64,000 nucleotides of DNA from Kofleriaceae bacterium (lineage in GTDB: Bacteria > Myxococcota_A > Polyangia > Haliangiales > Haliangiaceae). The position numbers and the translations under genes are program-made. Numbering within the stretch: the first letter of the stretch is position 1; each line of letters starts with the position of its first letter. The stretch lies in the NCBI GenBank assembly GCA_965215005.1, contig CBDCCZ010000004.1, positions 192,001-256,000 on the forward strand, in the 5' to 3' direction. This document shows positions 18,398 through 46,310 of this stretch, piece after piece. A model generated the notes under the pieces. That model saw only the letters and a list, made by a program, of their open reading frames with translations. It made no database searches and had not been told where the DNA came from.

Positions 18398-18431
18398 CGT
18401 AGAGCCTCCCCAGGCGATGCCGCGACGTTCA

Positions 18432-28444: not shown

Positions 28445-28556
28445 CAGTGAAGGCGGCGATCGTCGTGTAGTGAAGGCGGCGATCGTCGTGCAGTGAAGGC
28501 GGCGATCGTCGTGCAGTGAAGGCGGCGATCGTCGTGCAGTGAAGGCGGCGTTCGTC
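28445..28556 (+). repeat. 23-bp tandem repeat, ~4.9 copies
   Basis: Unit cagtgaaggcggcgatcgtcgtg at 28445, 28468, 28491, 28514 and partial at 28537; no spacers. Confidence 0.95.
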
Positions 28557-28592
28557 ATTTCGCGGCCGGTCGCATGCTGCTACACCCACGGG

Positions 28593-29459: not shown

Positions 29460-30178
29460 TCTGGCGGGTCGTGCTGCTGCTCGTGGTTCACGGCCTGGGT
29501 CGTGAGCCACAAGTAAAACAACAATCGCTACGGGAGACGCCGAAGTGGGCCCCCGAGCAGCGGCAAAACGCGCGCGGCGTCGCATCAGCCGAGTCGGCAA
29601 CGGCAACGCCGGCTGAGCAGTGGCCCGAGCTGCCATGGCCTGCGGCGGTCGCGCCGGTAGCACCGGCTACAGCGGCCACTGCCTCCACCGCAGAAGCCAT
29701 ACCGGAGCGAACCAAGCCGCCGACGGAGGTGCCGCCGCTGGTGATTTCGCTGCCGCTCGGCGCGCTGTCTTGGCGAGCCATCGCGCTGCAGCTCGAGCGC
29801 GGTGTTCGCCCGGCCACCAGCGCGATCGCTACCCTCGGCTATCGCGATGGTGCCGGGGGTGACTACGACTCGGTGACGTACGCTATCGGCGCGGAGCTGC
29901 GCTTTTGGCATCGGCCAAGTGCTCGAGGCTGGTTTCTTGGCCCCCGCGTCGAGCTCACGAACGTGCAGCTGCGCATGAGTATGTCCGGGCGTGGGCTCGG
30001 CAGCGTGTGGCGTGTCAGTGAAGGCGTGGTCGGCGGGTATCGCTTCTTAGTCGGTGCTCACCTCGAGCTGACCTCGAGCGTGGGTATTGCGCTGCGCCAC
30101 GATCTGCCGCATAGCGGGCTCGCGGCGGCCGCCAAGCTCACCCCGTTGCTTGGCGGCACGATTGGCTGGAGGTTTTGA
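29456..30178 (+). CDS. Putative outer-membrane beta-barrel protein (DUF3575-like)
   Basis: Signal-like N-terminus, amphipathic beta strands (GAELRFW, GWFLGPR), C-terminal IGWRF. Confidence 0.65.
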   Translation: MIWRVVLLLVVHGLGREPQVKQQSLRETPKWAPEQRQNARGVASAESATATPAEQWPELPWPAAVAPVAPATAATASTAEAIPERTKPPTEVPPLVISLPLGALSWRAIALQLERGVRPATSAIATLGYRDGAGGDYDSVTYAIGAELRFWHRPSARGWFLGPRVELTNVQLRMSMSGRGLGSVWRVSEGVVGGYRFLVGAHLELTSSVGIALRHDLPHSGLAAAAKLTPLLGGTIGWRF

Positions 30179-30188
30179 TCAACGCTGA

Positions 30189-32081
30189 TTAGTCGCGGTA
30201 GTAGCAGACTTCGCCGCCGCCTTCGGTTGCTTCGCAAACGCGCTGCATCGGCTGTGCTTCGCCGTGGCCTTCGAGGCGCGGTTGTCGCCATGGACCGGCT
30301 GGCGACCCGGGATTTGAGACGACGCTGGCATCCATGGCGGGGTTGAACGTGCGGTTTTCTTCGACACCCATCTGCTCATTCAGGCGATCGCGAGCGTTGG
30401 GGGCCGAGTGCACTTGGTGCTCGGTGTCGCGGGTGTTGTCGTTGGGCAACGTCGTGCGCGGCACGTCACGGCGCGACAGGCCGGTGCTCACGACGTCTCC
30501 TTCGGAAGGCGCGATCACCACGTTGGCACCTTGCTCTTGGGCTACCTGTACGTTGCACTTTTCGACGTGCGACGCTGCGGGCTGTAAGACCGTGATCTGG
30601 TCACCTTCGCCGAGCTCTTCAGAGACCTGGACCGCTTCCGAGCCTTGACTATGGCCACTAACATTAAAGTCGGCGTCGGGATCCTGGGCGCGCCGGGTTC
30701 GGACGTAATGGTCTAGGAAGCGGCCATCGTCGGTCCTTGGGCAGTGGTCGACGGCGGCGATAGCATTGGCCCCGTTGTTGGCCCAGTCGTTGCGGAAGCC
30801 GGTGGTCGTGCCGCTGGTGTGGCAGTGATAGACGCCGTCCTGCTTGAAGCACATGGTCTTGCCAGTACGAGACACCGCGCGATCGGTCGAGTCTTCGGGA
30901 AAGACGTATTCTTTCTCGTTGGCGCGCGGTCCCCAGATGACGCTCGCCGCGCGGTTGACGGGATGCGCTTGGCCGTCGTACTCGACGGTGCGTCGTACCC
31001 CGCGCGTCGGTTGCTCGTAGGTGCGATTGATACGAGCGGTCGGCGGCCCGTTTGATTCGATGACCGGGACGTTCTCGGTAGAAGCCACCAGCACCGGCTG
31101 CTCTCCACCGGTGTAGCCTAGACCTTCGCTCGGAGCGCTCGCGACCGTGCCATTGCCGCCGGCGCAAGCGACCAAGGTCCCGTCGTCCGCCGATGCCTTG
31201 CGCTGGCGAATGTTGCGCCCTTCACAGGATCTGGCCTCGGCTTGAATGCAGCGGCGAAATTGATTGGTGAGCTGCGCGTTGATGGTCTGCTCATGATGCT
31301 CATTGGCGCCGCCAAAGCAGTAGTCGCGCTTGGAGCGAGCCTTGATGCACTGCTTGAGCTGGGCGAACCGCGCGACATTGTCTGCGCAGCTCGCGTTTTC
31401 ATCGCAGGCGAGCAAGTCGTCGCAGTCGGCGCCACCGACGCCGCGCGGGCCGTGAACCTGCCGTGCGCGCCGCAAAAATTCTTCGGGGGAGCAGCGATTG
31501 GCCGCGGCGAGCTCAGCCGCGAAGTCTGCGCCAATGCCAGCGTTCTCATAGTCTTCTTGCGTGTACGCCAGCGTCTGACCACCACCCAATCCATCGAGAA
31601 CCCAGTCGCGAAATCGCTGCAGCTGATTGCCGGTCGCTTCGGCGGCCGACGAGATGGCTGCGACGAACGTCCCAGTCTCGCAGGTCAAGTTTCCGACGAT
31701 CGCGCCGCCCACCGCGCCAATGGCCGCGCCCCCGGCCGCGGAAACAGTGCAGAACGCGCGGCCGCCGGCATCGAAGGTGCACATCTCGCGGTTAATCTCG
31801 TAGCTCGCTGCGGCGCCGCCGGCGGTTGTAGTCAACATGCAAACGCCGCGGTCGCGCAGGTAGTCGAACAGCCCGGCACACATGGTTGGCGCGGGCACGG
31901 AGCTCTCGATGCTGGCCACCTGCCACTCGGGCACCAGACTCTTAATCGCGTGGCCGGTGACGTGCTTGTGATAGCCGAGATAGGTCGTGCCCACCACCGC
32001 GCCAATGCCGGCTATGACCGCCACGCCAGTGGCGGACACCGTGCCCCGCATACCACCCCATGGTTTTCGTCGTTCGCTCAT
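30189..32081 (-). CDS. Candidate polymorphic toxin: prepilin-like leader, Ntox16-like domain and GHSQG alpha/beta-hydrolase domain
   Basis: MRG|TVSATGVAVIAGIGAVVG leader; aa197-278 CSPEE...C...C...SC...CIKAR...CFGGANEHH...C; aa476-480 GHSQG, GDVV, VHS; last gene of the Tad operon. Confidence 0.6.
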   Translation of the reverse strand: MSERRKPWGGMRGTVSATGVAVIAGIGAVVGTTYLGYHKHVTGHAIKSLVPEWQVASIESSVPAPTMCAGLFDYLRDRGVCMLTTTAGGAAASYEINREMCTFDAGGRAFCTVSAAGGAAIGAVGGAIVGNLTCETGTFVAAISSAAEATGNQLQRFRDWVLDGLGGGQTLAYTQEDYENAGIGADFAAELAAANRCSPEEFLRRARQVHGPRGVGGADCDDLLACDENASCADNVARFAQLKQCIKARSKRDYCFGGANEHHEQTINAQLTNQFRRCIQAEARSCEGRNIRQRKASADDGTLVACAGGNGTVASAPSEGLGYTGGEQPVLVASTENVPVIESNGPPTARINRTYEQPTRGVRRTVEYDGQAHPVNRAASVIWGPRANEKEYVFPEDSTDRAVSRTGKTMCFKQDGVYHCHTSGTTTGFRNDWANNGANAIAAVDHCPRTDDGRFLDHYVRTRRAQDPDADFNVSGHSQGSEAVQVSEELGEGDQITVLQPAASHVEKCNVQVAQEQGANVVIAPSEGDVVSTGLSRRDVPRTTLPNDNTRDTEHQVHSAPNARDRLNEQMGVEENRTFNPAMDASVVSNPGSPAGPWRQPRLEGHGEAQPMQRVCEATEGGGEVCYYRD

Positions 32082-32824
32082 CGGTCATCCTTTCTTGCCT
32101 TAGAGGCACGTGGTGCTTTCTCTGCTTCTAGCTCAGCGCGAATCTCGGCGGCGATGGTGTCGTAGAGCTCGCGGCCAGGGCCTTCGAGCTCGCCGCGCTG
32201 CTCGCCGGCCATGAGCTCACGAACGAGCTCGTCATCGACTTGCTGGTTGATTCGCTCGTCGACCTCGAGGTCTGCGTCACCGTCGAGCTCGTCGTCTTCA
32301 TCGAAGCTTCGAGCGGCGACTGCCCCAGGCAGCGACGGGCGGCTCGGCGTCATGCAGCGGGTGATGTCTTGATAGCGCCGCGCCTCATCGAGGCAGCGCA
32401 TCAGCGCCTCGGGCATGGCTTGGGCGCGAGCGCAGAATCGCTCGCCGAATCCGTCGAGGACGGTTTCAGTGTCGATGGCGGTCATCGCTTTGGCCTGCTC
32501 GAGCGAGGCCGCCAGTGCTGCCCGCTCACGTGCCGGCTGCGCAGCAATCATTCGCTCGAGCTCGCCGATGTCGTCGGTGTCTTCCTCTTGCAGTCGCTTG
32601 GCAAGCGTCTGCAGCCGCGCTCGGCAGCGCGCGTTGCGGTCGTCGATTGCCACTGCCGGGGGTGCGCTGGCCACGCGCGGATCATCGACGGCTCGCAGCG
32701 CAGGCGTTGGTGCCACGGCAGGCCGCGAAGCCGGCGCGCTCGCCGCCGTCGTCTGCGCCGGCTCCGGCGCCTCGCTCCGGCACGCAGACGGCACCAGCAG
32801 AATGCATAGCAGCAGGTGTTTCAT
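32078..32824 (-). CDS. Hypothetical helical lipoprotein (candidate immunity protein)
   Basis: Lipobox-like PSAC; 4-bp overlaps with the upstream CpaF and the downstream toxin-like gene. Confidence 0.6.
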   Translation of the reverse strand: MKHLLLCILLVPSACRSEAPEPAQTTAASAPASRPAVAPTPALRAVDDPRVASAPPAVAIDDRNARCRARLQTLAKRLQEEDTDDIGELERMIAAQPARERAALAASLEQAKAMTAIDTETVLDGFGERFCARAQAMPEALMRCLDEARRYQDITRCMTPSRPSLPGAVAARSFDEDDELDGDADLEVDERINQQVDDELVRELMAGEQRGELEGPGRELYDTIAAEIRAELEAEKAPRASKARKDDR

Positions 32825-33933
32825 CGGCTGAGCTCCTCGGGATGCAGGCGATGCGCTGCTTCGATCACCGCCGGCGGTAAGCGCACGCCGCTGGTGAGCA
32901 GCGCTTCGGTGCAGCTCGGCAGCAGGCCGGTTGGCTCAAAGACACTGCCGTGATCGGTCCAGCGGCGGCGAAACAAGTCGCGAAACCGATAGCCTTTGCC
33001 TTCGTCGTAGCCGCAGACCTCGGAGATTCCGGTCACGCAGCGAAATCCTTCGCTGGTGCGCCCGCTGTGAACCACGACGTCGATCGCCGAGGCGACCTGC
33101 GAGCGGAGTGCGTACAACGGCAGACGGACGTCGCTCATGAGCGCCATGGTCTCGAGCCGATTGACGGTGTCGAGGGTATGGGTGGCGTGCACCGTAGACA
33201 TGCAGCCGCCATGGCCGGAGGTCATCGCTTGGATGAGGTCGAGCGACTCGCCGCCGCGGATCTCGCCCACGACGATGCGATCGGGCCGCAGCCGCAACGT
33301 TGCGCGGAACAAATCGCGGATGGTGACGATGCCGCGCCCACGCTCATCGCCGGGTTGCGCTTCTAAATGCACCACGTGGGTTTGCTGGAGCTGGAGCTCT
33401 CGCGAGTCTTCGATGACCACGATGCGCTCGCTCGGCGCAGCGAACGATGACAGCGCGTTGAGGAGAGACGTTTTTCCCGAGGCGGTTCCGCCGGCGACGA
33501 TGATGTTTTGCTTGGCGAGCACCAACGCGCGCAGTGTTTCCGCGGCATCGCGGGTGAGCGAGCCGAGCTCAATCAGTCGCTCGATGGTGAGCGTGTTGCG
33601 GAAGAACCGGCGAATCGCGATGTTGGGACCATCGGGGGCGGCCGGTGGAATGATGGCTTCGACGCGGGAGCCATCGGGCAGATGCGCCTCGAGGATCGGC
33701 CGCTGCTCATCGAAGTGCCGGCCGACGTATTGCGCCAGATTCCGCAGCGCCGCGAGCAGCTGCTCACGCCCGGCGAAGCGAACGGGAACCCGCTCGATGC
33801 GTCCGGCGCGCTCGACGTAGACCAAGTCGGGGCCATTGATCATCACCTCGGCAACCGTGTCGTCTTCCAAATACGGCCGGATCGGCCCAAAGAAGCCAAG
33901 CAGCGTTTCCTCGAAGATCTCGCGTGGAATCAT
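32821..33933 (-). CDS. cpaF: Second CpaF/TadA-family pilus ATPase (short form)
   Basis: EVMING, LPDGSRV, IAIRRF, GGTASGKT, IEDSREL, LRLRPDRIVVGEIRG, SGHGGCMSTVHA. Confidence 0.92.
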   Translation of the reverse strand: MIPREIFEETLLGFFGPIRPYLEDDTVAEVMINGPDLVYVERAGRIERVPVRFAGREQLLAALRNLAQYVGRHFDEQRPILEAHLPDGSRVEAIIPPAAPDGPNIAIRRFFRNTLTIERLIELGSLTRDAAETLRALVLAKQNIIVAGGTASGKTSLLNALSSFAAPSERIVVIEDSRELQLQQTHVVHLEAQPGDERGRGIVTIRDLFRATLRLRPDRIVVGEIRGGESLDLIQAMTSGHGGCMSTVHATHTLDTVNRLETMALMSDVRLPLYALRSQVASAIDVVVHSGRTSEGFRCVTGISEVCGYDEGKGYRFRDLFRRRWTDHGSVFEPTGLLPSCTEALLTSGVRLPPAVIEAAHRLHPEELSR

Positions 33934-34496
33934 GGTTGCCTCCGCTCGTCGCGTTCATCGGCTCGCTGCCGCGCTAAGTAACGACGCGCTTCCTTGGCGC
34001 GTTCGCCTTCGGGTTCGCGCCGCAAATAGGCGCGGAAGTAGCGTTTGGTGCGCTTGGCATCGCCTTCGCCGTCGCGAGCAGCCAGCGCCAATAGGTAGTA
34101 CGGCGCAGCGACGCTCGGTCGCTCTTGGATCAGGATCGAGAGCTGCTCCTCGGCGCGTCGATATTGCTCCAGAGCCAAATGCAGCGTGGCGATCAAATAG
34201 CGCAATCGCCAGTCGTCTGGCGCGTCGAGAAGGCGGGCCCGAGCGTGGAGCAGCGCTGCCTCATAGCGCTCGGCGTCGAGGCACAGGATGATCAGCTGCT
34301 GGAACGTGTGCTCGGGTCGATAGCCGCCGGCGAGCGCCAGCGCCAGATACTGCTCGCCCCGGACCGAGTCGCCGCGTTGAGCGGCGGTGATGCCGCGCTC
34401 ATAGAACTCGGCGCTGGAGGTTTGAGGCGCCGCAGGCGGGGGCGCATGCGCAGCGCATCCTGCGAGTAGCAGCACGGCGATGGAAATAGCCCTCAT
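33930..34496 (-). CDS. TPR lipoprotein (TadD/pilotin-like)
   Basis: Lipobox LAGC followed by TPR-like helices; inside the Tad operon. Confidence 0.7.
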   Translation of the reverse strand: MRAISIAVLLLAGCAAHAPPPAAPQTSSAEFYERGITAAQRGDSVRGEQYLALALAGGYRPEHTFQQLIILCLDAERYEAALLHARARLLDAPDDWRLRYLIATLHLALEQYRRAEEQLSILIQERPSVAAPYYLLALAARDGEGDAKRTKRYFRAYLRREPEGERAKEARRYLARQRADERDERRQP

Positions 34497-35365
34497 AAGG
34501 TGTTTTGCTCCTTCTTCGCGGCTTCTTCGCGCGTCTGCGCGTAGCGCTCGAGCTGCACCAACCAGCTCTGATAGGAGCCGCCGACATGGGCTACGAACCG
34601 CTGCATTTGGCGCGAGGCACTCATTACTCGCTTCCATTGCTTGGTGTCGCGTAGGTGCTCGAGCTCCATTCGCTGCAGCAGATAGTCATCGGCAATGCGT
34701 GCTTCGAGCTCCTCGCGCGCCATTCCGGTGCGCTTGGCTGCGTCACTGTCGTTGGCGGCTAGATAGCAGCGCTCGGCCGCGTGCAGCATCGAAACCGCGC
34801 CAATGCCATCCTCTACGGAAAATAGATAGCGTTCCGCCTTGGCGCGACCACGCTGTTCGAGATCGCGGCCGCGATCGACCGCATGCTCGGGATCGGGACA
34901 TTGCGCCGGCAGCGATTCGAATAGCGCCGGTGGTGGAGCGTCGGTGCTCGGTACCTCATCTTGCTCATCGCCGAGTAGCATCGCGGCCGAGCCCATCACT
35001 AAGAGCACGGTGAAGAGCAGCTGGCGGTTCTTCTTGTTGCCCTTGCGCGAGCGAGCTTCGGCCGCCGGCGCCTGCTCGCGCAGCCGCAGGCAAATCGAGC
35101 CAACGTCGATCTCGCTGCCCCAAGGAATGAGCTCATTGGCCAAGACGCGACCGATCAAGGTCGGCGCGACCGGCGCATCCCGCGCCGGCGACACCCACAC
35201 CCCCGCCCGTCGCGGTGCCAGCAAGAGGTGCATCGGCGCGATCTCAGGAGCCTCTTTGATGACTACGTCGGCGCTCGGCGAGCTGCCCACGACCACGTGT
35301 GCCCCTTCAGGCTCGTAGCTGCGGGTTTGGCCATTTGCGAGGATGAGCTCGATGAACATCGACAT
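34493..35365 (-). CDS. Degenerate FHA-domain membrane protein
   Basis: VVVGSSPSADVVI...IAPMHLLL...EIDVGSICL (FHA-like), one TM, helical C-terminus. Confidence 0.65.
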   Translation of the reverse strand: MSMFIELILANGQTRSYEPEGAHVVVGSSPSADVVIKEAPEIAPMHLLLAPRRAGVWVSPARDAPVAPTLIGRVLANELIPWGSEIDVGSICLRLREQAPAAEARSRKGNKKNRQLLFTVLLVMGSAAMLLGDEQDEVPSTDAPPPALFESLPAQCPDPEHAVDRGRDLEQRGRAKAERYLFSVEDGIGAVSMLHAAERCYLAANDSDAAKRTGMAREELEARIADDYLLQRMELEHLRDTKQWKRVMSASRQMQRFVAHVGGSYQSWLVQLERYAQTREEAAKKEQNTL

Positions 35366-35373
35366 CTCCGTAG

Positions 35374-36267
35374 CTAGAGCCCCATGCTCTGGGTGCGTAG
35401 AATTAGCGGACCGGCGATGATGACGAAGGTGGCCAGCAGCAGCAGCGTGAGCGGAATGAGCATCTTCATCGCCGCCTTCACCGCCGCCTCTTCGGCGTGC
35501 AAGCTGGCGCGCGCGCGCATCATCTCGGCCTGAATCGCCAACACGTCGCGTAGCGGCGTGCCCTTGTCTTCGGACTGCATCACTGCAGCGGAAAAGTCGC
35601 GGACGGCTTCGAGCGGGACGCGCTCGGCCAAAAGGCGCAGCGCTGCAGCACGGCTGTGGCCGAGCTCCATGCGGCGCAGCATCAGCCCCAGCTCTTCGCG
35701 CATTGGCGCCTCACGAGTCGGCCAGCGTGCGATTACATCGGCGACCGCGGCGGTGAAGGTCATGCCGGCGCTCATCGCCAGCGAGATGATGTCGATGGTG
35801 ATCGGCAAGTCGCGCTTGATCTCGCGCCGACGCGTCGCCGTTGCATCGATGATGAGGTTGTAGGGCATGAAGACGCCGACAATGGCGAACACGGCGATCA
35901 CGAACATCGGCACGCTACCGGTTGCGACCAGTGCCATGCCGAAGGCGGCGCCGAAGAACGCGCCTAACAAGCACGAGGCAAACCACTCGTCTGCAGATAG
36001 ACCTAAGTGATCGCCGGCTTGCACCAGACGCTGCTGCGCGCGGCGACGCATGCCTCCGAGCGGCAGGTGGGCAATCCAGCTGGCGATCTTGCGGATGACC
36101 GGCTCGAGGGTGCGAAACATGCCGCGTTCTTGCATCGCGCGATGCCGCTTATAACCGCGCAGCCCGAGGTCGGGCGCCGGCAGCACCACGGACTGTCCCA
36201 GCGCGAGAGCCGTGAAGGCCAGCGAGCTAGCGACGAGCAGGATTCCAGCGTATGCGAGCGCTTCCAT
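35374..36267 (-). CDS. tadC: TadC-like inner-membrane platform protein (T2SSF)
   Basis: LPITIDIISLAMSAG, ELGHSRAAALR, QSEDKGTPL, KMLIPL. Confidence 0.85.
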   Translation of the reverse strand: MEALAYAGILLVASSLAFTALALGQSVVLPAPDLGLRGYKRHRAMQERGMFRTLEPVIRKIASWIAHLPLGGMRRRAQQRLVQAGDHLGLSADEWFASCLLGAFFGAAFGMALVATGSVPMFVIAVFAIVGVFMPYNLIIDATATRRREIKRDLPITIDIISLAMSAGMTFTAAVADVIARWPTREAPMREELGLMLRRMELGHSRAAALRLLAERVPLEAVRDFSAAVMQSEDKGTPLRDVLAIQAEMMRARASLHAEEAAVKAAMKMLIPLTLLLLATFVIIAGPLILRTQSMGL

Positions 36268-36274
36268 GGGTTCC

Positions 36275-37129
36275 TTAGAAGTCCACGTCGAGAATGTTGC
36301 GCGCCATGATCAGCGACATCACCCAGGCGCAGCCGGCCAGCGCCATGAGACCGTAGCCAACGCTGCCGGACTCGAGCATTGGCTCGAAGTAGGTCGGGTC
36401 CATCTTGTTGAGGAAATAGATCAGCAGCGGCGGTCCCAGCGCCAAGCAGATGAGCTGCATGCGCGCCATGGCCGTTTGCTTGCGCAACACCGCCTGCAGG
36501 CGGAGAATCTCGCGCAGTGACGCAGCCGTCTTCTTGAGCAGAGACGGCAGCTCACCGCCGGTTTCGCGGCCAATCAAAATGATGGTGACCACCGAGCCGA
36601 ATAGATTCGAGCCGATGCGGTTGCCCATCGCCCGCAACGCCTCTTCCATGGGCGCGCCGATGCGCAGCTCTTTCACCAGTCGATCGAGCTCACGGCCGAG
36701 GTGACCGCGGGTGAGGTCGGCGGTGTAGCGGAACGCTTCCGGTAGCGAGCCGGTCACCGCCAGCATGTTGGCCATCATCAACAGCCAGCTGTTTAGCTGC
36801 TCCTCGATGAGCTTGACGCGCCGCTTGCGCTGGAACGCCAGCCACAGGCGTGGGCCGATGATGCCAAGCGGGATGAACACCAGCAGTCGCAGGTCGACGT
36901 AGTAGCCGAGCACCGCACCGCCGACGATGGCCGCCAGCTGCGCCAACGCCATGTCGGTGCCACGGGCATCGAGCGTGAGTGCTTGCGCCGAGTCGTTCAA
37001 GCCGCCGGTGTAGCGTCCCCACAGCCGACCCACGCCGCCGCGCTGGCGGGTCGCCGCGTAGGAGGCGACGCCGAGCCCCGCGGCAAGCACCGCCGCACCC
37101 ACGTACGCCACCAGATCGATCTGGTTCAT
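36275..37129 (-). CDS. tadB: TadB-like inner-membrane platform protein (T2SSF)
   Basis: GSLPEAF, ELRIGAPMEEAL, RETGGEL, ARMQ, PTYFEPM. Confidence 0.85.
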   Translation of the reverse strand: MNQIDLVAYVGAAVLAAGLGVASYAATRQRGGVGRLWGRYTGGLNDSAQALTLDARGTDMALAQLAAIVGGAVLGYYVDLRLLVFIPLGIIGPRLWLAFQRKRRVKLIEEQLNSWLLMMANMLAVTGSLPEAFRYTADLTRGHLGRELDRLVKELRIGAPMEEALRAMGNRIGSNLFGSVVTIILIGRETGGELPSLLKKTAASLREILRLQAVLRKQTAMARMQLICLALGPPLLIYFLNKMDPTYFEPMLESGSVGYGLMALAGCAWVMSLIMARNILDVDF

Positions 37130-38733
37130 AACGCCGGCTCCCCGGGCCGCACGAGGCCCATCGTGTAGAAATCCCCCAGATAGCTCGGCAGGTGACCAGA
37201 AGCGTAGAATTCGCCTTTCACCTCGCCATTGGGACCGGTTGAGGTTCGGCGAAATCCGAAGATCTCCCGCACCTGAATCTCGCCATCGTCATCGAGAGCG
37301 ATGACCTCAGAGACGCCGGTGATGCGTCGCGAGCCATCCGACATCCGCGATTGCTGCACGATCACGTCGATGGAGCCGGCGATTTGCTCGCGGATGGCGC
37401 GCGCCGGAATATCGACCCCGGCCATGAGGGCGAGCGTCTCGATGCGCTTCATCGCCTCGCGCGGGCTGTTGGCGTGGGTGGTGGTGAGCGAGCCATCGTG
37501 GCCGGTGTTCATCGCCTGGAGCATGTCTAGCGCTTCGGCGCCACGACACTCGCCGACGATGATGCGGTCGGGTCGCATACGCATCGCGTTCTTCACCAAA
37601 TCGCGAATGGTGATCTCACCGCGGCCCTCCATGTTGGGCGGTCGACTCTCGAGCGAGACCACGTGCGCCTGGCGGAGTTGGAGCTCAGCGGCATCTTCGA
37701 TGGTGACGATGCGCTCGCGCTCGGGAATCGCGCTCGAAAGGATGTTCAGCAGCGTCGTCTTGCCGCTGCCGGTGCCGCCCGACACCAAGATGTTCTTCTT
37801 TGCGAGCACCGAGCGCGACAGAAAACGCATGATCGCCGGCGTGACGCTGCCAAAGCGAACCAAGTCCTCGGCGGTGAGGGGGGTGTCGCTGAATTTTCGA
37901 ATCGTGACGCAGGCGCCGCGAATCGCGAGCGGTCGAATCACTGCATTGACGCGCGAGCCATCGGGCAGGCGCGCATCGAGCATTGGCGCCGATTCATCGA
38001 TGCGCCGGCCCAGAGGCGCGACGATTCGCTCGATGATGGCCCGGACCGACTCCTCATCGGTGAAGCGACTGCCCGTGAGCTCGATACGACCGCGGCGCTC
38101 GACGTAGATGGTGTGCGGATCGACCACCATGATCTCACTCACCTCGGGCATCGCGAGCAGATCTTCCAGCGGCCCGAGGCCGATCGCTTCGTGGGTGAGC
38201 TCTTCGACCAAGCGCTCGGCATCGGTGCCGACCGGCAGCTGAACGCGGTAGCGAGCAACGATGTGTTTGAGAGCAACTTCGACTTTGGCGCGCAGCAGGT
38301 GGTCGTTCATGCGGCTGCGCTCGAGGCGCACCAAGTCGAGGTGATCGAGGAGCTCGCGGTGGATCGCTCGGCGTGCGGCAACCCCGACATCGCTGTTCTG
38401 CGACGTGGGAGCTCCAGCGACGAGCTGTAAACGGAGTCGAAACGGGCCGATGACGATGGGCGCGGCGGGATCGAGGGCTACGGTGTCGCCAACGATGGCG
38501 CGTGAGCCAACCACAGTGCCTATGCCAGATAGATCGGTGAGCCGCAGCTGCTCGCCGTGGAGCTCGAGGCGCGCGTGAGTGGCAGCAACCTCGGACGAAT
38601 CGAGGCAGAGCTCGCAGCTCGAGTCGCGGCCGATCGTGATTGCCTGCGAAAACGGCCCCACCTCGCGAACCGGAGTCCCTGGTCCGTGTACGAACAGGCG
38701 AATCGCGAGGTTCTTACGCGCCGGAGCGGTCAT
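37126..38733 (-). CDS. cpaF: CpaF/TadA pilus ATPase with N-terminal FHA domain
   Basis: ITIGRDSSC...HARL (FHA); GLGPLEDLL, GRRIDESAPMLDARLPDGSRVN, GGTGSGKTT, RMRPDRIIVGECRG, NTGHDGSLTTTHAN. Confidence 0.95.
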   Translation of the reverse strand: MTAPARKNLAIRLFVHGPGTPVREVGPFSQAITIGRDSSCELCLDSSEVAATHARLELHGEQLRLTDLSGIGTVVGSRAIVGDTVALDPAAPIVIGPFRLRLQLVAGAPTSQNSDVGVAARRAIHRELLDHLDLVRLERSRMNDHLLRAKVEVALKHIVARYRVQLPVGTDAERLVEELTHEAIGLGPLEDLLAMPEVSEIMVVDPHTIYVERRGRIELTGSRFTDEESVRAIIERIVAPLGRRIDESAPMLDARLPDGSRVNAVIRPLAIRGACVTIRKFSDTPLTAEDLVRFGSVTPAIMRFLSRSVLAKKNILVSGGTGSGKTTLLNILSSAIPERERIVTIEDAAELQLRQAHVVSLESRPPNMEGRGEITIRDLVKNAMRMRPDRIIVGECRGAEALDMLQAMNTGHDGSLTTTHANSPREAMKRIETLALMAGVDIPARAIREQIAGSIDVIVQQSRMSDGSRRITGVSEVIALDDDGEIQVREIFGFRRTSTGPNGEVKGEFYASGHLPSYLGDFYTMGLVRPGEPAL

Positions 38734-39887
38734 CGCGTCTCCCTGGTTCTGGCGCGGCGCGAGGGCGCCGGCTTGGCGGCGGGCGCCGGCTTGGCGGCGG
38801 CCGGGCGCGCTTCGCGAGCGCTATCGTCGCCGAGCGAGTCGAGGAGCCGAGGACCTCCCGGCTCGTCGTAACCACGATAGACGTTAAAGGCTTCGCGAAC
38901 GCGATCGCGAACCTCGAGCGGCAAGGCGCCGACCATACTCGGCACCACGAAGACAACGTTTTGAATGTTCTCTTCGCGCTTGCTCTTGATGCCGAACAGG
39001 TAGCCGAGTACCGGAATGTCGCTGAGCAGCCAGATTCCGGTTTGGGAGTCGCTGACCTCGTCGGCATAGAGCCCCGCGAGTGCCAGCGACTGGCCGAGCT
39101 CCAGGTTGACGACGGTATTGACGTTGGAGGTCGTACGGCCGGGCAAGCCGTCGGTGCTTGCTGCGGTCAAGCTTGCGACCTCGGCTTTGATGGTGAGCTC
39201 GATGCGGCCGGTGGCGTCGTCGTAGATGGCGCGGGTGGAGATGCTGGTGCCAAACGGGATCTTCTCGATGCCTACCGCCAGGCCGCTGCCGACGCGAAAG
39301 TTGCTCTCGCCGCCGCTCTCGTAGCTGCCTTCGCCGCCGTTGGCGACGACGACCCGCGCGTGCCGCATGATCTTGGCCCAGCCGCGATCACGCGCAAAAT
39401 CGAGGCGCGGCAGGATCTCGCTCTGCACGGTCACGCGGGTGCGATCGGGCGCCGCTGAATCGGTGACGAAGTCAGTGGAGACGCGCGCATCGAGGGAGGT
39501 TGGCAAGCTAAGGCCGAGCTGGCGCCCGTAACCATTCGAGAGCTGCACGAAATAGAAGTCGAGGCGGATGTTGCGGCGGGCGCGAATGCGCGAGACGGTG
39601 ATGCGGTAGGGAATCTTGCGGCCGTCTTGCATGATGATGAGCATCGAGGTCGTGCCCGGCGACAGCCCCAAGATCACCACTTCCCGTTGATCCTCGGTAA
39701 CCCGCACATCGGCGATGCCAGGTGCGCCCATGGAGATGGTGTCGATGCCCTCGCCATTGATGGATTTCTGGCCTCCCGGCTCGAGCTGTATCTCGCGCTC
39801 GTTCTGTGCAGGCGCCGGAGCTGACCACACGAGCGCCAACATCAGTATCCATGCCACCCGCCGCACCGCCCGAAGCGGAGCGCTCAA
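38730..39887 (-). CDS. cpaC: Tad secretin (RcpA/CpaC family)
   Basis: Signal peptide, GIADVRV...VILGLSPGTTS (pilus N-domain), LELGQSLALAGL, LSDIPVLGYLF. Confidence 0.88.
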   Translation of the reverse strand: MSAPLRAVRRVAWILMLALVWSAPAPAQNEREIQLEPGGQKSINGEGIDTISMGAPGIADVRVTEDQREVVILGLSPGTTSMLIIMQDGRKIPYRITVSRIRARRNIRLDFYFVQLSNGYGRQLGLSLPTSLDARVSTDFVTDSAAPDRTRVTVQSEILPRLDFARDRGWAKIMRHARVVVANGGEGSYESGGESNFRVGSGLAVGIEKIPFGTSISTRAIYDDATGRIELTIKAEVASLTAASTDGLPGRTTSNVNTVVNLELGQSLALAGLYADEVSDSQTGIWLLSDIPVLGYLFGIKSKREENIQNVVFVVPSMVGALPLEVRDRVREAFNVYRGYDEPGGPRLLDSLGDDSAREARPAAAKPAPAAKPAPSRRARTRETR

Positions 39888-40810
39888 CGAGAGCCTCCGC
39901 GGCGCCTGCGCCGCTCTTTGCGTTCTTTGCGCTCTTTGCGCTCTTCCTCATCACTGCGTGCGCGCTGCTCGTCGTCAGCGGCATCGTCTCCTCGCGTGGC
40001 GCTCTGCTGGTCGGCCGGCTCGTCGCTACCCTTGGCACTCTGCAGCGCCTTGCGCGCGGCTTCTTGCGCCGCCGACTCCTCTGAGCCGGTCATCGCCAGT
40101 CGTGGGAACGCGGTGGTGGTGGTAGCGCCTGGCAGGTCGTCGACCAGCCGAATATCATCGGGATTGCGCAGTGCGAGCGTGATGGCCCCGCGGTCGGATG
40201 CCAGCGTGAGCTCCTGGGCCTGCTGAATGTCCACTGCCAGACTCACCGTGGTCATCGCGCTGCTACCGGACGCGCGTCCCGCCGCGCCGCCGATGTCATC
40301 GCCAACCGCCAAGATCAAGAGGTTCTGCGCGAGCGGGACCGTCATCCGATCGCCGGTGACAGCGCTCGTAGCAGTCAAGAAGGCATCGACGCGGTCACCC
40401 GGGCGAAGCAGCCCGCTAAACGCCGACTGCCGCGTCGCTGGAATCGAGACCGCGCGCATGCCCACTCGCACCAGGCCCGCGAGGTTGCGCGATTCGCTGG
40501 TCGTGGTCGCGAGATCTGACCACAGGAGTGCTTCGCTCGGCTGCAGCGAGCTGCCGAGCCGGACGCCGATGATGCTTCTGGCTTCGGCCGCACGGATGTG
40601 ACGACGCTCTACGAAGGCCTCGGGGATTTCTCGGGTGGCGATGTGCTCGGGCCGAAGCCGCGTTCCGATAGGCAGATCGGCGGTGCTTACCACCACCGGC
40701 ACCCGATTGCCGCCGAGCGCGTTCTCCTCGAAGCGCTGCTTGTAGAGCACCAGCATGGCCGCTCCAACGAGCGACAACATGGCGGCGACGATGAATGCTC
40801 CTTTTTGCAT
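39884..40810 (-). CDS. cpaB: Flp pilus assembly protein CpaB/RcpC
   Basis: SAF domain VVVSTADLPIG, GMRAVSI, GLLRPGDRVD, LALRNPDD. Confidence 0.93.
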   Translation of the reverse strand: MQKGAFIVAAMLSLVGAAMLVLYKQRFEENALGGNRVPVVVSTADLPIGTRLRPEHIATREIPEAFVERRHIRAAEARSIIGVRLGSSLQPSEALLWSDLATTTSESRNLAGLVRVGMRAVSIPATRQSAFSGLLRPGDRVDAFLTATSAVTGDRMTVPLAQNLLILAVGDDIGGAAGRASGSSAMTTVSLAVDIQQAQELTLASDRGAITLALRNPDDIRLVDDLPGATTTTAFPRLAMTGSEESAAQEAARKALQSAKGSDEPADQQSATRGDDAADDEQRARSDEEERKERKERKERRRRRGGSR

Positions 40811-40817
40811 GCGTCTC

Positions 40818-41807
40818 CTACGGCGCGAGCTCGCGGGCCCGCGCGATCATTCGTTCGAAGTGGCCAGCGTCATCGGCGACGATGGCGGTAGCGATGCGGC
40901 CTTGATGCTCGAACAACACCACGAAGGCCATCGCACCATTGCGAGTCACGAGCAGTGAGGTCTCGGTGCTGTTTAGCTTCTCGCTGGCGTTCCAGCTCAC
41001 CTGCCAGCCGTGGGCGACGAGCAGTTTTTCGTAACCCTGGCGCTGCGCGGCAAGAGAGCCGTTGGCGCCGGTGTAGAGCGTCATGCCGTAGGAGGTGCCC
41101 TTCTCGAACACCGACAGCACTCGATTCGAGCCTTGCGGGCGCGGCAGTGCGGTGGCATCGGCGCCTGGCACATCACCGGCGATGGGAAACATTTGATCGA
41201 CGTCCATGTCCGCGGCATAGAGGCCAGCGAAGTGGGTGCGATCGCCGCGGCGCTCGGCGTAGACGTAGCGAAATCCGCCCAAGGCGCCGACGTCGCCATC
41301 GCGCAAGAACTGCTGAATCGCGGCGAGTGACTCACTCGGGCTCGACAGATCCACGCCGGTGAGGACGCAGGTGGCGAAGCCGCGGTCGCCATCTTGCGCG
41401 ATGAGCGAACGACCTGGAGGTGGCTCGCCATCGAACAGCGGCGCCAGCCTTTCATCACTGCCGGCGCCATCGCAGCGCGCCGCAAACGAGCTCAGCAGCG
41501 TCTCCACCGCATCGTCGGTGGTGCCAGTGGACAACAGAATCTCAGCGCCGTTGAATGAAACGGTGCGCGGCAGCTCTTGCGTGATCGCCCCCTGATACGC
41601 CAATAGGCGGGTTCCGAGGGTGAAGCTGCCTTCGTAGGCATGCGCGGCGATGGGCCCGCGAAGGCCGTGGACGGTGAGCGCGGCAGCCGCGAGAATGGTG
41701 AGGGCAAGTGCTGCCTTGCGCAGCGACTGCAAGGCTTGCGCGGCAAGCTGCCGCGGCGGCGGCAATTCTCCGCGTCGCCAGCGAAATAATAGCCGAATCA
41801 AGGACAC
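40818..41807 (-). CDS. Hypothetical membrane-anchored protein in the Tad operon
   Basis: 329-aa ORF with N-terminal TM, between tadE and cpaB; no family recognised. Confidence 0.7.
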   Translation of the reverse strand: MSLIRLLFRWRRGELPPPRQLAAQALQSLRKAALALTILAAAALTVHGLRGPIAAHAYEGSFTLGTRLLAYQGAITQELPRTVSFNGAEILLSTGTTDDAVETLLSSFAARCDGAGSDERLAPLFDGEPPPGRSLIAQDGDRGFATCVLTGVDLSSPSESLAAIQQFLRDGDVGALGGFRYVYAERRGDRTHFAGLYAADMDVDQMFPIAGDVPGADATALPRPQGSNRVLSVFEKGTSYGMTLYTGANGSLAAQRQGYEKLLVAHGWQVSWNASEKLNSTETSLLVTRNGAMAFVVLFEHQGRIATAIVADDAGHFERMIARARELAP

Positions 41808-42331
41808 CAGCTACCTCCGTACCAGCGCGACGGCATCAGTGCCTCGCAGATCGGGCGGAACAGGATCGGAAACGTCCAGTCGGCCTTGCGCGCGTTGCAC
41901 ATCATCGCGTGCTGACCGCCGACCTCGACGCTGCCGCCGAACAGCGCGGGGCGCGGAACACGCGCCTTGCGTCGCATTTCGAACGTTTGCCCATGTAGCG
42001 ATGCAAGCTCGGGCGCCAGGATGGGAATCCGCTGCGCGATGGTGTCGAACTTGCCAGCGGCAGCAGCGCGTAGCGCGCCGTCGCTCATCACCGTCGGTCC
42101 TTGCTGCTGAACATCGCACTGCGGCGGCAGCTGCTCGCAACCGCTCGTGGCGTAGAACCACGCGCAGCTGCGGATGCGCTCTTGGTTCTCCAGCTCGACC
42201 ACGTTGAAGCCGGCGACGTACATGCCGAGCAGCCACAGCGACACGAACACCGGAAACACCACCAGCATCTCGATGAACAGCGACCCGCGCTGCTCCGAGA
42301 AGATCGACTTATAAGTCCTGCGCGTGCGCAT
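41798..42331 (-). CDS. TadE-like minor pilin
   Basis: EQRG|SLFIE-MLVVFPVF prepilin motif with E5. Confidence 0.8.
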   Translation of the reverse strand: MRTRRTYKSIFSEQRGSLFIEMLVVFPVFVSLWLLGMYVAGFNVVELENQERIRSCAWFYATSGCEQLPPQCDVQQQGPTVMSDGALRAAAAGKFDTIAQRIPILAPELASLHGQTFEMRRKARVPRPALFGGSVEVGGQHAMMCNARKADWTFPILFRPICEALMPSRWYGGSWCP

Positions 42332-42332
42332 A

Positions 42333-43529
42333 TCAGTGAACGATCAGCTCCTCACTGCGCTCGATGGCATCGCGGATGTCGGCGCACGAGACGCCGGTGC
42401 CGCTGTTTGCGCACTCGCGGCTCATCACGTCCGGCGTGGTCTCACGGAACCGCCGGAATCGCGCGCGCCACTGCATTTGCCACAGCATCTGTGCCTGCTC
42501 GGCGTTGCCATCGAAGTAGTACTCGGCCTGCGCAAATCCAACTCGGCTGAGAATCTTGCGCAGCGCCGCGGTGCGGCCGCCGTTCTCGTTGCGCCCCCAC
42601 GCAGCCAGCCGCACCGCGCGATCGAGGTCGTCGCCGATGGTCTCGCCCACCGCGTAGAAGCGCAGTTGATAGGGCTCGCTGCCGAGCGGATCGGTGACGC
42701 GACGGCCGGGCACCTGCGCCAAGCACGCCGGCCAAAACCGCTCGCGCGCGACCTTCCAGGCTTTCTCGCGGGGCCACGGCCCGATCCCGATCGGCGTCCA
42801 AACCTTGAGGTAGGGCGAGTGCCAGACGGTGGGAATCGTGTCGGTTTCCCACGCCTGCTTCTTTAGGATCGGACGGGTGCTGATCCGACCCCACAGCGAC
42901 GCATCGGGCTCGACGCGCGCGCAGAACTCTTCAATCGGCTCGTCCTCGGTTGGCGTCTTGCCTTTCGGCACCAAGAAGCCGCCTTCGATGCCGTCTCGCT
43001 GCGCGGCCAGACCCGCTGCTTGCGCTTCGGCGAGCTGGCCGAGCTGATTCTCAATCGCGCTTTGCGCGCGGTCGGTGGCCTCCATGGTGTCGGTGAGAGC
43101 CGAGCCGTTGGCCAACACCGCGGCTTCGATACCGATCACGGCCAGCGGAAGCCGCATCGGCCCCCACAGGATGCGTCGCAGCTTGCGTTTGATTCGGCAG
43201 ATAAAGTTAAAGCCGCAGACTTTCGCGAGCTTGCGGTTGATGTAGTCGATGGTCTCGACAGCCGCCCATGCCACCGCCGCCATCGATGCCACCAGTGCAA
43301 CCGTGGCGAGCTTGACGATGTTGAGCAGTGCCAGAAGGTTCATGCCGCGGGCATGCATCACCGCGGCGGCGTAGGCTCCGGTGTCAGAGGCATCGCGCAG
43401 TCGGTCACCATGGCGAATCGCTTCGCCGATCCCGGTTAGGTAATAGAGGACGCCAACGAGCAGCAGCGAGACGAAGATCGTCATGATCAACACCGCGCCG
43501 CGCGTATCGCGCGAAAGCTCAGTACGCAT
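42333..43529 (-). CDS. TadG-like minor (tip) pilin
   Basis: DTRG|AVLIM hydrophobic helix, LRDASDTGAYAAA..ARGMN motif, AQAEYYFD...WRARFRRF C-terminus. Confidence 0.8.
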   Translation of the reverse strand: MRTELSRDTRGAVLIMTIFVSLLLVGVLYYLTGIGEAIRHGDRLRDASDTGAYAAAVMHARGMNLLALLNIVKLATVALVASMAAVAWAAVETIDYINRKLAKVCGFNFICRIKRKLRRILWGPMRLPLAVIGIEAAVLANGSALTDTMEATDRAQSAIENQLGQLAEAQAAGLAAQRDGIEGGFLVPKGKTPTEDEPIEEFCARVEPDASLWGRISTRPILKKQAWETDTIPTVWHSPYLKVWTPIGIGPWPREKAWKVARERFWPACLAQVPGRRVTDPLGSEPYQLRFYAVGETIGDDLDRAVRLAAWGRNENGGRTAALRKILSRVGFAQAEYYFDGNAEQAQMLWQMQWRARFRRFRETTPDVMSRECANSGTGVSCADIRDAIERSEELIVH

Positions 43530-44115
43530 AGCTCGCCCCCTGGTTTGGCAGCGCGGCCTCGTCGGTGAGCAGCAAGTGGCCCGCGCCGCCCCGCCATCTG
43601 CACATGATGCGGCGGGCGATGGGGACGACGCAGCGAAACCGATATTCGACCGCGACCTTGACCGTATCGCCCGGGCCGAAGCGGCCGCTGGCGCCGGGAA
43701 AGGTGATGCGGACGCGATCTTGTAGATCACGCGCCGGCGCGAGCAAGCCAGGCAGCGGCGTATTGGGTTGAGGCGCCGCAACCGCGTTGTAGAGGGTGTA
43801 GAGGCCGGGAACCTGCGCCGGGCTGCAGGTGGCTACGAGGGCAACGGCAGCGGCTTTCTCGATCGCCGCGAAGCGCTGGTTGCCCGAGGAGACATCGCCG
43901 CGCTCGGCACCGCCGTAAAACTGCGGATCGTCGTCGAGCACCACGACAGCGGCGCGCACCGCCGCAGATGCAGCGTGCGCAATCCCGAGCTTGCCGACGT
44001 ACGCGAGTGCCGACTGAGCGACACAGAACGTGAAGATCAGGAACAGCGGAGCGACGATGAGGAGCTCGACGAGCAGCGAGCCCCTCTGGTCGCGATATGC
44101 GGTGCGGCTATTCAC
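43519..44115 (-). CDS. TadE-like minor pilin
   Basis: DQRG|SLLVE-LLIVAPLF, HAASAAVRAA, VKVAVEYRFRCVVP. Confidence 0.85.
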   Translation of the reverse strand: MNSRTAYRDQRGSLLVELLIVAPLFLIFTFCVAQSALAYVGKLGIAHAASAAVRAAVVVLDDDPQFYGGAERGDVSSGNQRFAAIEKAAAVALVATCSPAQVPGLYTLYNAVAAPQPNTPLPGLLAPARDLQDRVRITFPGASGRFGPGDTVKVAVEYRFRCVVPIARRIMCRWRGGAGHLLLTDEAALPNQGASYAY

Positions 44116-44612
44116 ACCATCCACAACGCCAATAGGCTGCCGACCAAGATCGACGGCCCGAGGCGCATTTCGGTCATTTCGGTCCGCGCGACCGGTTTGC
44201 GACGCGAGCGCGGCATGACCAGGTTTAGGGTTACTCGACCCATGTTCGCGAATGCCTGCCCGAGGCGCCGTTCGCGAGCCAGCCAAACGATCGCCCACGC
44301 CGCGCTCACGAGCAGGCTCATCACCAGCATCTCCATGCCCAGCGAGACGCCGTGCAGCGCGCCGAGCGCCGCAAACAGCTTGACGTCCCCGCCGCCCATC
44401 CCATCCATGCGGAACATCAGGTAGGGCACGAGCCCGACTCCGATGATCCCCAAGACGCTGAAGATCAGCCCTTGTGACCCGTGCTGCCACCAAAACAGCA
44501 CCGGTGCCAATGCGATAGCAGGCAAGGTGAGCCAGTTGGGAATCTCACCGCGCCGCCAGTCGGTAAAGGCAGCGACGCTCACGAGGACGATCGTTGTGAC
44601 TAGCACCCACAT
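44112..44612 (-). CDS. cpaA: Prepilin peptidase (A24, CpaA/TadV)
   Basis: TDWRRGEIPNWL, GMGGGDVKLFAALG (two catalytic Asp). Confidence 0.93.
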   Translation of the reverse strand: MWVLVTTIVLVSVAAFTDWRRGEIPNWLTLPAIALAPVLFWWQHGSQGLIFSVLGIIGVGLVPYLMFRMDGMGGGDVKLFAALGALHGVSLGMEMLVMSLLVSAAWAIVWLARERRLGQAFANMGRVTLNLVMPRSRRKPVARTEMTEMRLGPSILVGSLLALWMV

Positions 44613-44623
44613 GAGAATCTTGC

Positions 44624-44866
44624 CTACGGCTCTGACTGCTCGGGGGTCGGCAGCGTGGTCTGCACGCCTTCGATCGCGTTGCCTTCTTCGCCGAACTTGG
44701 CTTTGGTCTTGTCGCCTAGGTACTTGGCGCCAAAGATGACGACGAATACGAAGATGGCGACGATGAGCAGGACCTCGAAGAATTCGATGCCTCGCTGATC
44801 TGCCAGAAGGCTCTTGCGCTTCTGCGCATCGCCGCCGAGAAGAATGTCTTTGATCCGTTGCTTCAT
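44624..44866 (-). CDS. flp: Flp-family major pilin
   Basis: DQRG|IEFFE-VLLIVAIF...LG; 80 aa; GGAG RBS. Confidence 0.8.
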   Translation of the reverse strand: MKQRIKDILLGGDAQKRKSLLADQRGIEFFEVLLIVAIFVFVVIFGAKYLGDKTKAKFGEEGNAIEGVQTTLPTPEQSEP

Positions 44867-44936
44867 GACTGAGGGCTCCTAATTGCGTCTCGTGGTTAGC
44901 GGGCCGTTTGCGAGTTCATGGCGATATGTGCAGCTC

Positions 44937-45119
44937 CTAGGGGAACGGCCCAGCGAGAGCAAGCTGCGCATACCGAAACGCGCGCAGGAGCGGAAAGCCG
45001 AGCTGAATCGCAGCGCCGGCGATCGGAAACGCAAAGAACGCCACGATGAGCACGTACTCCACGTAGACCACTCCCCGCGCATCGCGACACGCTGCAGTCC
45101 AATCTTGCTCCTCACGCAC
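44937..45119 (-). CDS. Flp-like small pilin
   Basis: DARG|VVYVEY (G-x4-EY Flp motif) followed by a hydrophobic helix; 60 aa. Confidence 0.75.
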   Translation of the reverse strand: MREEQDWTAACRDARGVVYVEYVLIVAFFAFPIAGAAIQLGFPLLRAFRYAQLALAGPFP

Positions 45120-45362: not shown

Positions 45363-46310
45363 GTGAAGCCGCAAAAGGATGAGCTGGCGTGGCCGAGTCA
45401 CTTCGCCGTCGACTCCGATGTCACCGTCGTAGACGGCCTCGGTCCACAGGATCGAGCGTCAACGGCATCCATACTCGCGCTCGAAGCGACGTGCGAGCTG
45501 CAACGTGTCGAGGCGGTGGATGACCGCGGCAATCACTTCTCCGCCGCCCTCGGTCTTCGCGACCGCGCCATCCTCATTGGCTCGTCGGCATCATGTCGTT
45601 GGCGTCTCGAGCAAGATGGTGTCGAAAGTGAGCATTTGGAGCTGGTGTGGGAGCAGGGCGGACTTTGGCTGAACGCGCGAGCGCCGGTTCTGGTCGCTGG
45701 GCGGAGCGTGATCGGCTGGGAGCCGCTGCGCGAGCACGAGGTTGTGCTGGGCTCTGCCAAGCTCACTCTCAATGCTTCGAGTAAGGATGCACTGCCCGAG
45801 GTCCTCGCCGCCGAAGCGCCTAGCACGGCGCCGCAAGCGCCAGGGCTCGATGCCGATCTCGCGGAGCGCTTTGCGTTGCCGCCGGAAGACGAGAACGATG
45901 GCAGCGCCGCGCGGCCACCACTGCTTCGCCGCAAGCTCCTCGGTGCGCCGGTCTCGGCGTGGCTCGTGGTCTCCCTGGCGCTCATCACCGCGGCTTACGC
46001 GCTCACCACTGCCGATTGGCTGGATCGGGTGACTCGACCCCCGCGCGCGGTTCGGGTGCTGCCGACCGAGGTCACCGCCGGCGACGTCGACGCGAAGCCA
46101 ACGACACCGACGCGTGCTGTCGAACGCGCTGAGGTTCGACAAGCGGCCGAGCTGTTGGCGCAGCGCGACTTGGGTGCCGCACTCGCGGCCTATACCGAGC
46201 TCGCCGAAGCCGCCGGCCCGACGAGTCCCTACGCGATCTTTGCAGAGCTGCTCGGCCGTCTCTGCGCACCTGGCACCATGGGAGCTGGACCATGCACCGC
46301 AGCGCCTTGA
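45363..46310 (+). CDS. Degenerate FHA-domain membrane protein
   Basis: ILIGSSASCRWRL..DGVESEHLEL...VVLGSAKL (FHA-like), one TM, TPR-like tail. Confidence 0.65.
   Translation: MKPQKDELAWPSHFAVDSDVTVVDGLGPQDRASTASILALEATCELQRVEAVDDRGNHFSAALGLRDRAILIGSSASCRWRLEQDGVESEHLELVWEQGGLWLNARAPVLVAGRSVIGWEPLREHEVVLGSAKLTLNASSKDALPEVLAAEAPSTAPQAPGLDADLAERFALPPEDENDGSAARPPLLRRKLLGAPVSAWLVVSLALITAAYALTTADWLDRVTRPPRAVRVLPTEVTAGDVDAKPTTPTRAVERAEVRQAAELLAQRDLGAALAAYTELAEAAGPTSPYAIFAELLGRLCAPGTMGAGPCTAAP

Follow-up and report, generated by a model that had tools for sequence, protein, structure and literature searches.

A candidate pilin-fused effector with swappable cargo at the end of a Kil-like Tad pilus operon in a Kofleriaceae bacterium

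We analyzed a 64,000-nucleotide stretch of DNA from a Kofleriaceae bacterium (the window; contig CBDCCZ010000004.1, positions 192,001 to 256,000), which carries a 17-gene operon for a tight adherence (Tad)/Flp pilus on its minus strand. The last gene of this operon (30189-32081) encodes a 630-amino-acid protein, hereafter the terminal protein, which appears to consist of a prepilin-like head and a swappable cargo. We consider it probable that toxins are exported as pilin fusions through this Kil-like, two-ATPase Tad pilus. Because the head of the terminal protein resembles a pilin, its cargo is swappable and relatives encode pilin-headed toxins, these pili are likely armed via their own subunits. 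An initial annotation of the region had tied a toxin-like terminal cargo to a Kil-like Tad system and had named a neighboring lipoprotein as the immunity half of the pair. Our analysis upholds the linkage of the cargo to the pilus; the likely delivery route, with the cargo fused to a prepilin-like head, had been missed, and the immunity role of the lipoprotein was not sustained.

The terminal protein has no meaningful match in Pfam or NCBIfam. A search of 1.84 billion representative sequences returned 23 matches, which split the protein into modules. Residues 1-55 (31917..32081; all operon coordinates are on the minus strand) form the prepilin-like head, with a basic leader, a putative RG cleavage motif at Gly13, a hydrophobic helix and a YLGYHK...LVPEW motif. 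This motif follows the hydrophobic helix and contains 13 invariant positions in an alignment of 11 heads. A hydrophobic, glycine-zipper-like segment, recognized from sequence and hydropathy, is located at about residues 105-135 (31677..31769) and is common to the relatives P0007, P0011, P0015 and P0016. Residues 172-290 (31212..31568) form a Cys-rich domain that we assign indirectly as Ntox16-like, based on matches of relatives and on a motif. Six of 22 scanned relatives match Ntox16, all below the cut-off (E 1e-4 to 0.04), and an alignment including one above-cut-off Ntox16 member contains the invariant Arg and [DNE]xxH, which fits the conserved motif defined in the accessible text of Zhang 2012 (PMC3482391). 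An ESM Atlas search with the Ntox16-like part gave nothing usable. Approximately residues 345-604 (30270..31049) are predicted to fold into a lipase-type alpha/beta hydrolase with a GHSQG motif and a Ser478-Asp529-His558 triad, all three residues being invariant in the eight aligned lipase sequences. For a structure model of this domain with a predicted local distance difference test score (pLDDT) of 69, the best Foldseek match is 9cys, a type VI secretion system (T6SS) lipase effector complex (E 1.6e-3, 14% identity), and VIA-align returned a Z score of 9.0 with phospholipase A1 (root mean square deviation 5.8, 224 aligned residues) and of 8.9 with a feruloyl esterase. A Protein Data Bank sequence search with the lipase alignment reached a best E value of 0.16, and some of its weak matches were lipases. 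The terminal protein further contains 20 cysteines and lacks a HINT domain.

We compared the head with known pilins. An alignment mixing cargo heads with pilins gave circular scores for the cargo heads and was not used; we therefore relied on a hidden Markov model (HMM) built from short Flp pilins only and on hhalign comparisons with controls. The profile of the head scored 81-90% with 19 short Flp pilins, 88% with cargo-bearing Flp heads and 66% with TadG heads, and 27% and under 5% with the other three pilin sets. Eight control N-termini, taken from two lipoproteins, TadB, TadC, CpaA, CpaB, CpaC and a conserved 329-amino-acid gene of the operon, gave 2% or less. As in Flp prepilins, the head has a basic leader, a Gly before the cleavage site and a hydrophobic helix; the Gly precedes the hydrophobic stretch in 10 of 11 aligned heads, and the eleventh sequence starts after that point. 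Together these features suggest a prepilin-like segment, which we read as a divergent Tad prepilin, with the profile comparison being its one link to pilins.

Elsewhere, the head of the terminal protein is joined to at least six different cargoes. We found it with an Ntox16-like tail alone (P0007), with a lipase tail alone (P0002), with deaminase-like tails (P0015, P0016 and a paralog on contig C60 of the window's own genome), with beta-rich tails (P0024, P0025, P0017, P0026) and with two unclassified tails (L018, L019). These tails are found behind lipoprotein-like signals as well, in several of the proteins P0003-P0013. Since one head bears different tails and these tails recur behind other signals, the family follows the pattern of polymorphic toxins, with a constant N terminus, variable C termini and tails shared with other heads. 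The C60 paralog (L001:5828-7063, corresponding to G000:C60:35827-37062) has a head 58% identical to that of the terminal protein and a different tail carrying CAE and PCxxC motifs; its deaminase fold is weak (pLDDT 55; Z 5.4 with the best match, blasticidin S deaminase; unsupported by Foldseek). A colicin-M-like motif in L019 received no support from Pfam. Five of the nine genes with this head and a known context are located at Tad loci (the window, L015, L016 twice and L020), where they occupy two different operon positions. Locus L015 repeats the arrangement of the window, namely cpaF2 (the second CpaF ATPase gene), lipoprotein and cargo, with an unrelated cargo. In L016, a tandem pair of genes carries the two domains of the terminal protein on separate heads, the Ntox16-like domain on one and the lipase on the other; the pair lies in the divergent FHA operon, which was read only as far as the FHA-ATPase. 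The family is rare: a search of 5.8 billion sequences identified 10 proteins with a head of this type, and no such head was found in the 146 other genomes of the order.

Related systems provide fusions of pilin heads with recognizable toxins. In genome G015, the gene that overlaps cpaF2 by 4 bp encodes a Flp head, a PT-HINT domain and an Ntox16 domain (26.4 bits, cut-off 25) and is followed by a DUF6714 gene. A second locus in the same genome combines Flp, PT-HINT and HNH and precedes a DUF4265 gene. From their positions, we infer that the DUF6714 and DUF4265 genes provide immunity. In genome G367 (L190:700-2678, G367:C1), a TadE-PT-HINT-Ntox21 fusion lies in a Tad operon between the prepilin peptidase gene and a TadG-like gene and is followed by CdiI_N; this would be the clearest toxin-immunity pair among those found. 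Three pilin-HINT-toxin genes thus precede immunity-type genes, and two of the three are inside Tad operons. The presence of toxin and immunity-type genes inside homologous operons, which supports the initial annotation, is borne out by G015 (Ntox16 with DUF6714) and G367. Further Flp-headed proteins combine HINT with an above-cut-off Scabin-like domain, a papain-fold tail or an unclassified tail, or else have a metallopeptidase-like tail and no HINT. Five genomes, four of which were chosen for already having one such gene, yielded 15 PT-HINT matches; Flp heads were found in 11 of the 14 examined (21-34 bits with the short-Flp-only HMM), distributed as 6/6 in G232, 2/2 in G015, 2/3 in G394, 1/1 in G376 and 0/2 in the window's own genome. 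CpaB is present in all five checked genomes that have orphan Flp-cargo genes. The six Flp-HINT proteins of G232 (L158, L162, L165, L168, L169, L170) each have a different tail; one of the genes lies about 5 kb from a Tad operon, and L158 is seemingly out of frame after HINT. Two polymorphic toxins of the RHS-HINT type, each about 2400 amino acids long, are encoded in the own genome (G000:C27:15523 and C24:14014). A separate class, found in several families (L096, L100, L104, L109, L144, L145, L151, L153), combines a Flp head, a Gly-rich linker and a C-terminal transmembrane helix, and is perhaps a pilin tethered at both ends.

Several results weigh against export of the terminal protein as a pilin fusion, and they concern the head, the homologous operons, the cargo domains and the immunity genes. 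Taken by itself, the head of the terminal protein reaches 0.9 bits with the short-Flp HMM, and Glu+5, invariant in 19/19 short pilins, is missing in all aligned heads of the terminal-gene type. Of the 401 genomes searched for the class, 130 contain a match to cpaF2 at E<=1e-100. We assembled a non-random sample of 10 loci and 40 of the top-scoring further matches; with L015 (identical to G400:C25, in a genome of this class) added, L012 left out because other Tad genes are absent there, and L034 merged as a duplicate of L015, it comprises 49 operons. Pilin-headed cargo lies within three genes after cpaF2 in four of them (G006, G031, G015, G400; the first two belong to one genus), whereas about 43 run on into a gene that is FHA-like or of low complexity and often precedes a lipoprotein-like one, as assigned by BLAST or by eye. 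Two show neither continuation. The initial annotation had proposed a test for a variable last operon position; with cargo in just these four operons, this holds for a minority only. In one genus, two or three Flp-headed genes follow cpaF2 (L003:12848-14597 and 16978-18924, L025), namely a Cys-rich 246-amino-acid cargo, a short membrane-tailed pilin and a 545-amino-acid cargo on the opposite strand, with tails lacking a Pfam match.

These findings could also be explained if the degenerate head were an uncleaved inner-membrane anchor or export signal and the terminal gene a passenger, its product being periplasmic or exported otherwise. The missing Glu+5 and very low single-sequence score would fit such an anchor, as would the continuation of most homologous operons into an FHA-like gene and the location of four of the nine genes with this head (C60, L017, L018, L019) far from Tad genes. 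We regard this explanation as improbable: the Gly before the hydrophobic stretch is conserved, the head profile fits pilins and not other anchors, the other five genes sit at Tad loci in two operon positions, and the operon's own TadG-like pilin likewise lacks Glu+5.

The remaining adverse results concern the cargo and its neighbors. Ntox16 is itself a predicted toxin that we encountered in a single paper, and PF15523 (Ntox16) matches neither the terminal protein nor any protein of the own genome. Fold support for the lipase is modest, with no Foldseek match at E<=0.001 and VIA-align Z scores of 8-9. In an unselected sample, PT-HINT was detected in 36 of 301 genomes, and 26 further loci from it (one per genome, 1.5-kb flanks) revealed one TadE head and one weak Flp-like head; within that distance the others, many of which are RHS-sized, showed no pilin head. 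We saw no candidate for immunity after the Flp-HINT genes L091, L092, L094 and L097, nor beside the two L016 genes or the four orphans with the window-type head. The family of pilin-headed HINT proteins is genuine, though patchily distributed. The terminal protein could instead be a pilin-headed surface enzyme or tip module for feeding or adhesion, hydrolyzing lipids at contact with no killing and no need of immunity. The lack of immunity candidates beside the L016 lipase and Ntox16-like genes and the orphans is in line with this, as are the occurrence of the lipase family as stand-alone lipoprotein-like proteins and the absence of HINT from the window protein. A feeding module would not account for the relatives, whose pilin heads carry above-cut-off HNH, Ntox16 and Ntox21 domains with immunity-type genes and an above-cut-off Scabin-like domain, nor for the C60 paralog tail with its CAE/PCxxC motifs and weak deaminase fold, and we thus judge it unlikely.

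We examined the 248-amino-acid protein encoded directly upstream of the terminal gene (32078..32824). By eye, it has a lipoprotein-like signal, with Cys15 in an atypical lipobox. Pfam and NCBIfam gave no match for it, ESM Atlas none that was usable, and no homolog was found in the 146 other genomes of the order. A resemblance to the 202-amino-acid gene that follows cpaF2 in G006 and G031 was rejected (BLASTP E 0.15). Prediction of a complex between the lipase domain and the lipoprotein scored 0.01, which we count neither way. In a strict effector/immunity pair, which would be compatible with pilin-fused export, the lipoprotein would neutralize the terminal toxin, much as Tli lipoproteins neutralize Tle lipases. 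The 4-bp coupling of the two genes is consistent with this role, and so are lipoprotein-like genes after two Flp-metallopeptidase genes (L093, L101) and a pairing shared by L015 and L020, whose beta-rich cargoes (26% identical) and exported partners (36% identical) are homologous and arranged in differing orders. Against it, the same lipase behind the same head in L016 has no adjoining lipoprotein, and no homolog of the lipoprotein was detected near any other copy of either domain. We thus consider an immunity function doubtful, and a cognate partner of the terminal protein a possible assignment.

If the terminal protein is exported as a pilin fusion, the following steps can be envisaged, those from membrane insertion to exit being drawn from general type IV pilin biology. 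The head would direct Sec insertion, and the operon's CpaA would cleave after Gly13. The protein would fold in the periplasm, its 20 cysteines allowing for disulfides, and would be assembled as a minor pilin near the pilus tip. The pilus-borne cargo would then exit through the secretin at the contact site, where the predicted lipase may attack membrane lipids of the touched cell and the glycine zipper may aid entry of the Ntox16-like domain. In HINT-bearing relatives, the toxin would be freed by self-cleavage, whereas the window protein, which has no HINT, may act tethered or after proteolysis. The wider proposal, for which we see about even chances, is that Tad pili form a new export route for polymorphic toxins in predatory Polyangia: effectors fused to Flp or TadE (nucleases, deaminases, lipases, peptidases and ADP-ribosyltransferase-like domains) would travel on a Kil-like pilus and be released by HINT at or inside the prey.

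We compared the window system with those described in the accessible parts of the literature. It shares with Kil of Myxococcus xanthus (Seef 2021, PMC8460266; Herrou 2025, PMC12075869) a Tad core whose ATPase is fused to an FHA domain, further FHA proteins, Flp pilins, a TadE/F/G-type trio and a myxobacterial host; KilF is such an FHA-ATPase fusion (Seef 2021, PMC8460266). Kil has a single ATPase and no TadD in that account, whereas in the window two ATPases and a TPR lipoprotein are encoded within one compact operon. Kil has as its partner a type III secretion system lacking a needle (T3SS*), and none was found in the window genome, which is 92.8% complete. The single FHIPEP match was rejected as probably FlhA, since flagellin genes lie 12-16 kb away. 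This FlhA-type protein and five flagellin-family genes (G000:C4:109437-125719) belong to a flagellar gene cluster that lies some 100 kb away from the Tad operon. Because of the two ATPases and the lack of a detected T3SS*, we do not file the window system as Kil. The Kil toxin is not identified in the accessible text of the 2021 and 2025 papers (PMC8460266, PMC12075869), where Tip4 is suggested to carry or bind one, whereas the window and its relatives provide candidate effectors fused to pilin heads. For the question of how Kil-type Tad pili kill, this locus with its relatives offers named effector candidates and a possible route, with the effectors made as pilin subunits. If correct, this would make Tad pili a further export route for polymorphic toxins and provide a toxin source for Tad-based killing that does not need T3SS*.

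Polymorphic toxins as outlined by Zhang 2012 (PMC3482391) likewise have a constant trafficking head and a variable tail, and our relatives share with them PT-HINT, Ntox16, Ntox21 and HNH tails and immunity genes placed downstream. For Ntox16, that paper lists the type II secretion system, T6SS and Photorhabdus virulence cassettes (PVC), and no immunity gene. The trafficking domain here would be a Tad prepilin, and none of the words 'pilin', 'pilus' or 'Flp' appears in the accessible 300,000 characters of that paper. A J Biol Chem 2025 study (PMC12605009) names Flp pilins among the domains fused to the ARC toxin domain, so that the bare Flp-pilin-toxin architecture is already in print; in the part accessible, this is a single passing mention of an extracellular or anchoring element, with no Tad locus, route or myxobacterial family. 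Modular minor pilins such as KilN, TadG and Streptococcus sanguinis PilB/PilC (PMC12075869) also combine a pilin helix with extra domains at the tip, which are adhesive or have no known function, whereas here enzyme or toxin domains are fused and swapped. In Vibrio cholerae, TcpB-TcpF illustrates pilus-dependent effector export (PMC12075869), but TcpF docks non-covalently and the cargo here is fused. T6SS Tle lipase effectors have the Ser-Asp-His lipase fold in common with the predicted window lipase; the similarity to 9cys is weak, however, the heads differ, and housekeeping lipases score about equally. In the accessible literature, we came across no account of polymorphic toxins being exported by a Tad system, nor of this myxobacterial family.

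All 17 genes of the operon, from 45119 to 30189, were found where the initial annotation had placed them. Its eight 4-bp stop/start overlaps and the 70-bp spacing between the two Flp pilin genes were likewise confirmed, and the remaining seven junctions measure -11 to +11 bp. From this spacing we infer that the operon, including its last two genes, is co-transcribed. On the minus strand from cpaF2 to the last gene, we found neither a terminator-like nor a sigma-70-like site; over the whole region, terminator-like matches are at chance level (9 versus 10.7 in shuffles). A public contig is identical across 29500-34500 and is possibly the source of the window itself. By Pfam, the Tad/Flp (type IVc) set is complete, with pilin, A24 peptidase, CpaB, secretin, CpaF, TadB/TadC and TadE-type minor pilins. 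The Pfam matches of both short pilins fall below the cut-off, and both are supported by the short-Flp HMM. Flp-type pilin 1 (44937..45119, 60 amino acids) has a G|xxxxE motif, a Flp_Fap match at E 0.004 and 24 bits with the HMM. Flp-type pilin 2 (44624..44866, 80 amino acids), the candidate major pilin, matches Flp1_like at E 0.007 and scores 55 bits with an HMM built without its sequence. The CpaA/TadV prepilin peptidase follows (44112..44612, Peptidase_A24 E 3e-18). Three minor pilins with RG leaders by sequence, TadE (43519-44115, TadE E 8.5e-5), a TadG-like protein (42333-43529) and a TadE/F-like protein (41798-42331), form the predicted tip trio; their profile similarity to Flp heads is 64-95% (41798..44115). 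The conserved 329-amino-acid gene (40818..41807) has no Pfam family, and its homologs occupy this place in several operons. It is followed by CpaB (39884-40810, RcpC and SAF), the CpaC secretin (38730-39887, Secretin and T2SS-T3SS_pil_N), an FHA-fused CpaF ATPase of KilF-like architecture (37126..38733, FHA at residues 32-96 plus T2SSE) and the TadB and TadC inner-membrane platform (35374..37129, T2SSF twice). An FHA-like protein (34493-35365, weak Yop-YscD_cpl match), a TPR lipoprotein that is a possible pilotin (33930-34496, weak TPR match) and the second CpaF ATPase, cpaF2 (32821..33933, T2SSE E 3e-56), precede the lipoprotein and terminal genes. A third FHA-CpaF ATPase of 727 amino acids stands alone on contig C18 (L002:10111-12294), away from other Tad genes.

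Two plus-strand genes diverge from the operon, one FHA-like (45363-46310) and one lipoprotein-like (46292-47149). They probably belong to the Tad system, since their homologs follow cpaF2 in many related operons. Convergent with them is a gene for an FHA and sigma-54 activator protein (47161-48879, minus strand), and similar activators are encoded close to Tad or cargo genes at L003, L004, L019 and L171. At the other end, genes for a BD-FAE-type esterase (28539-29459) and a DUF3575-like protein (29456-30178) are convergent with the end of the operon.

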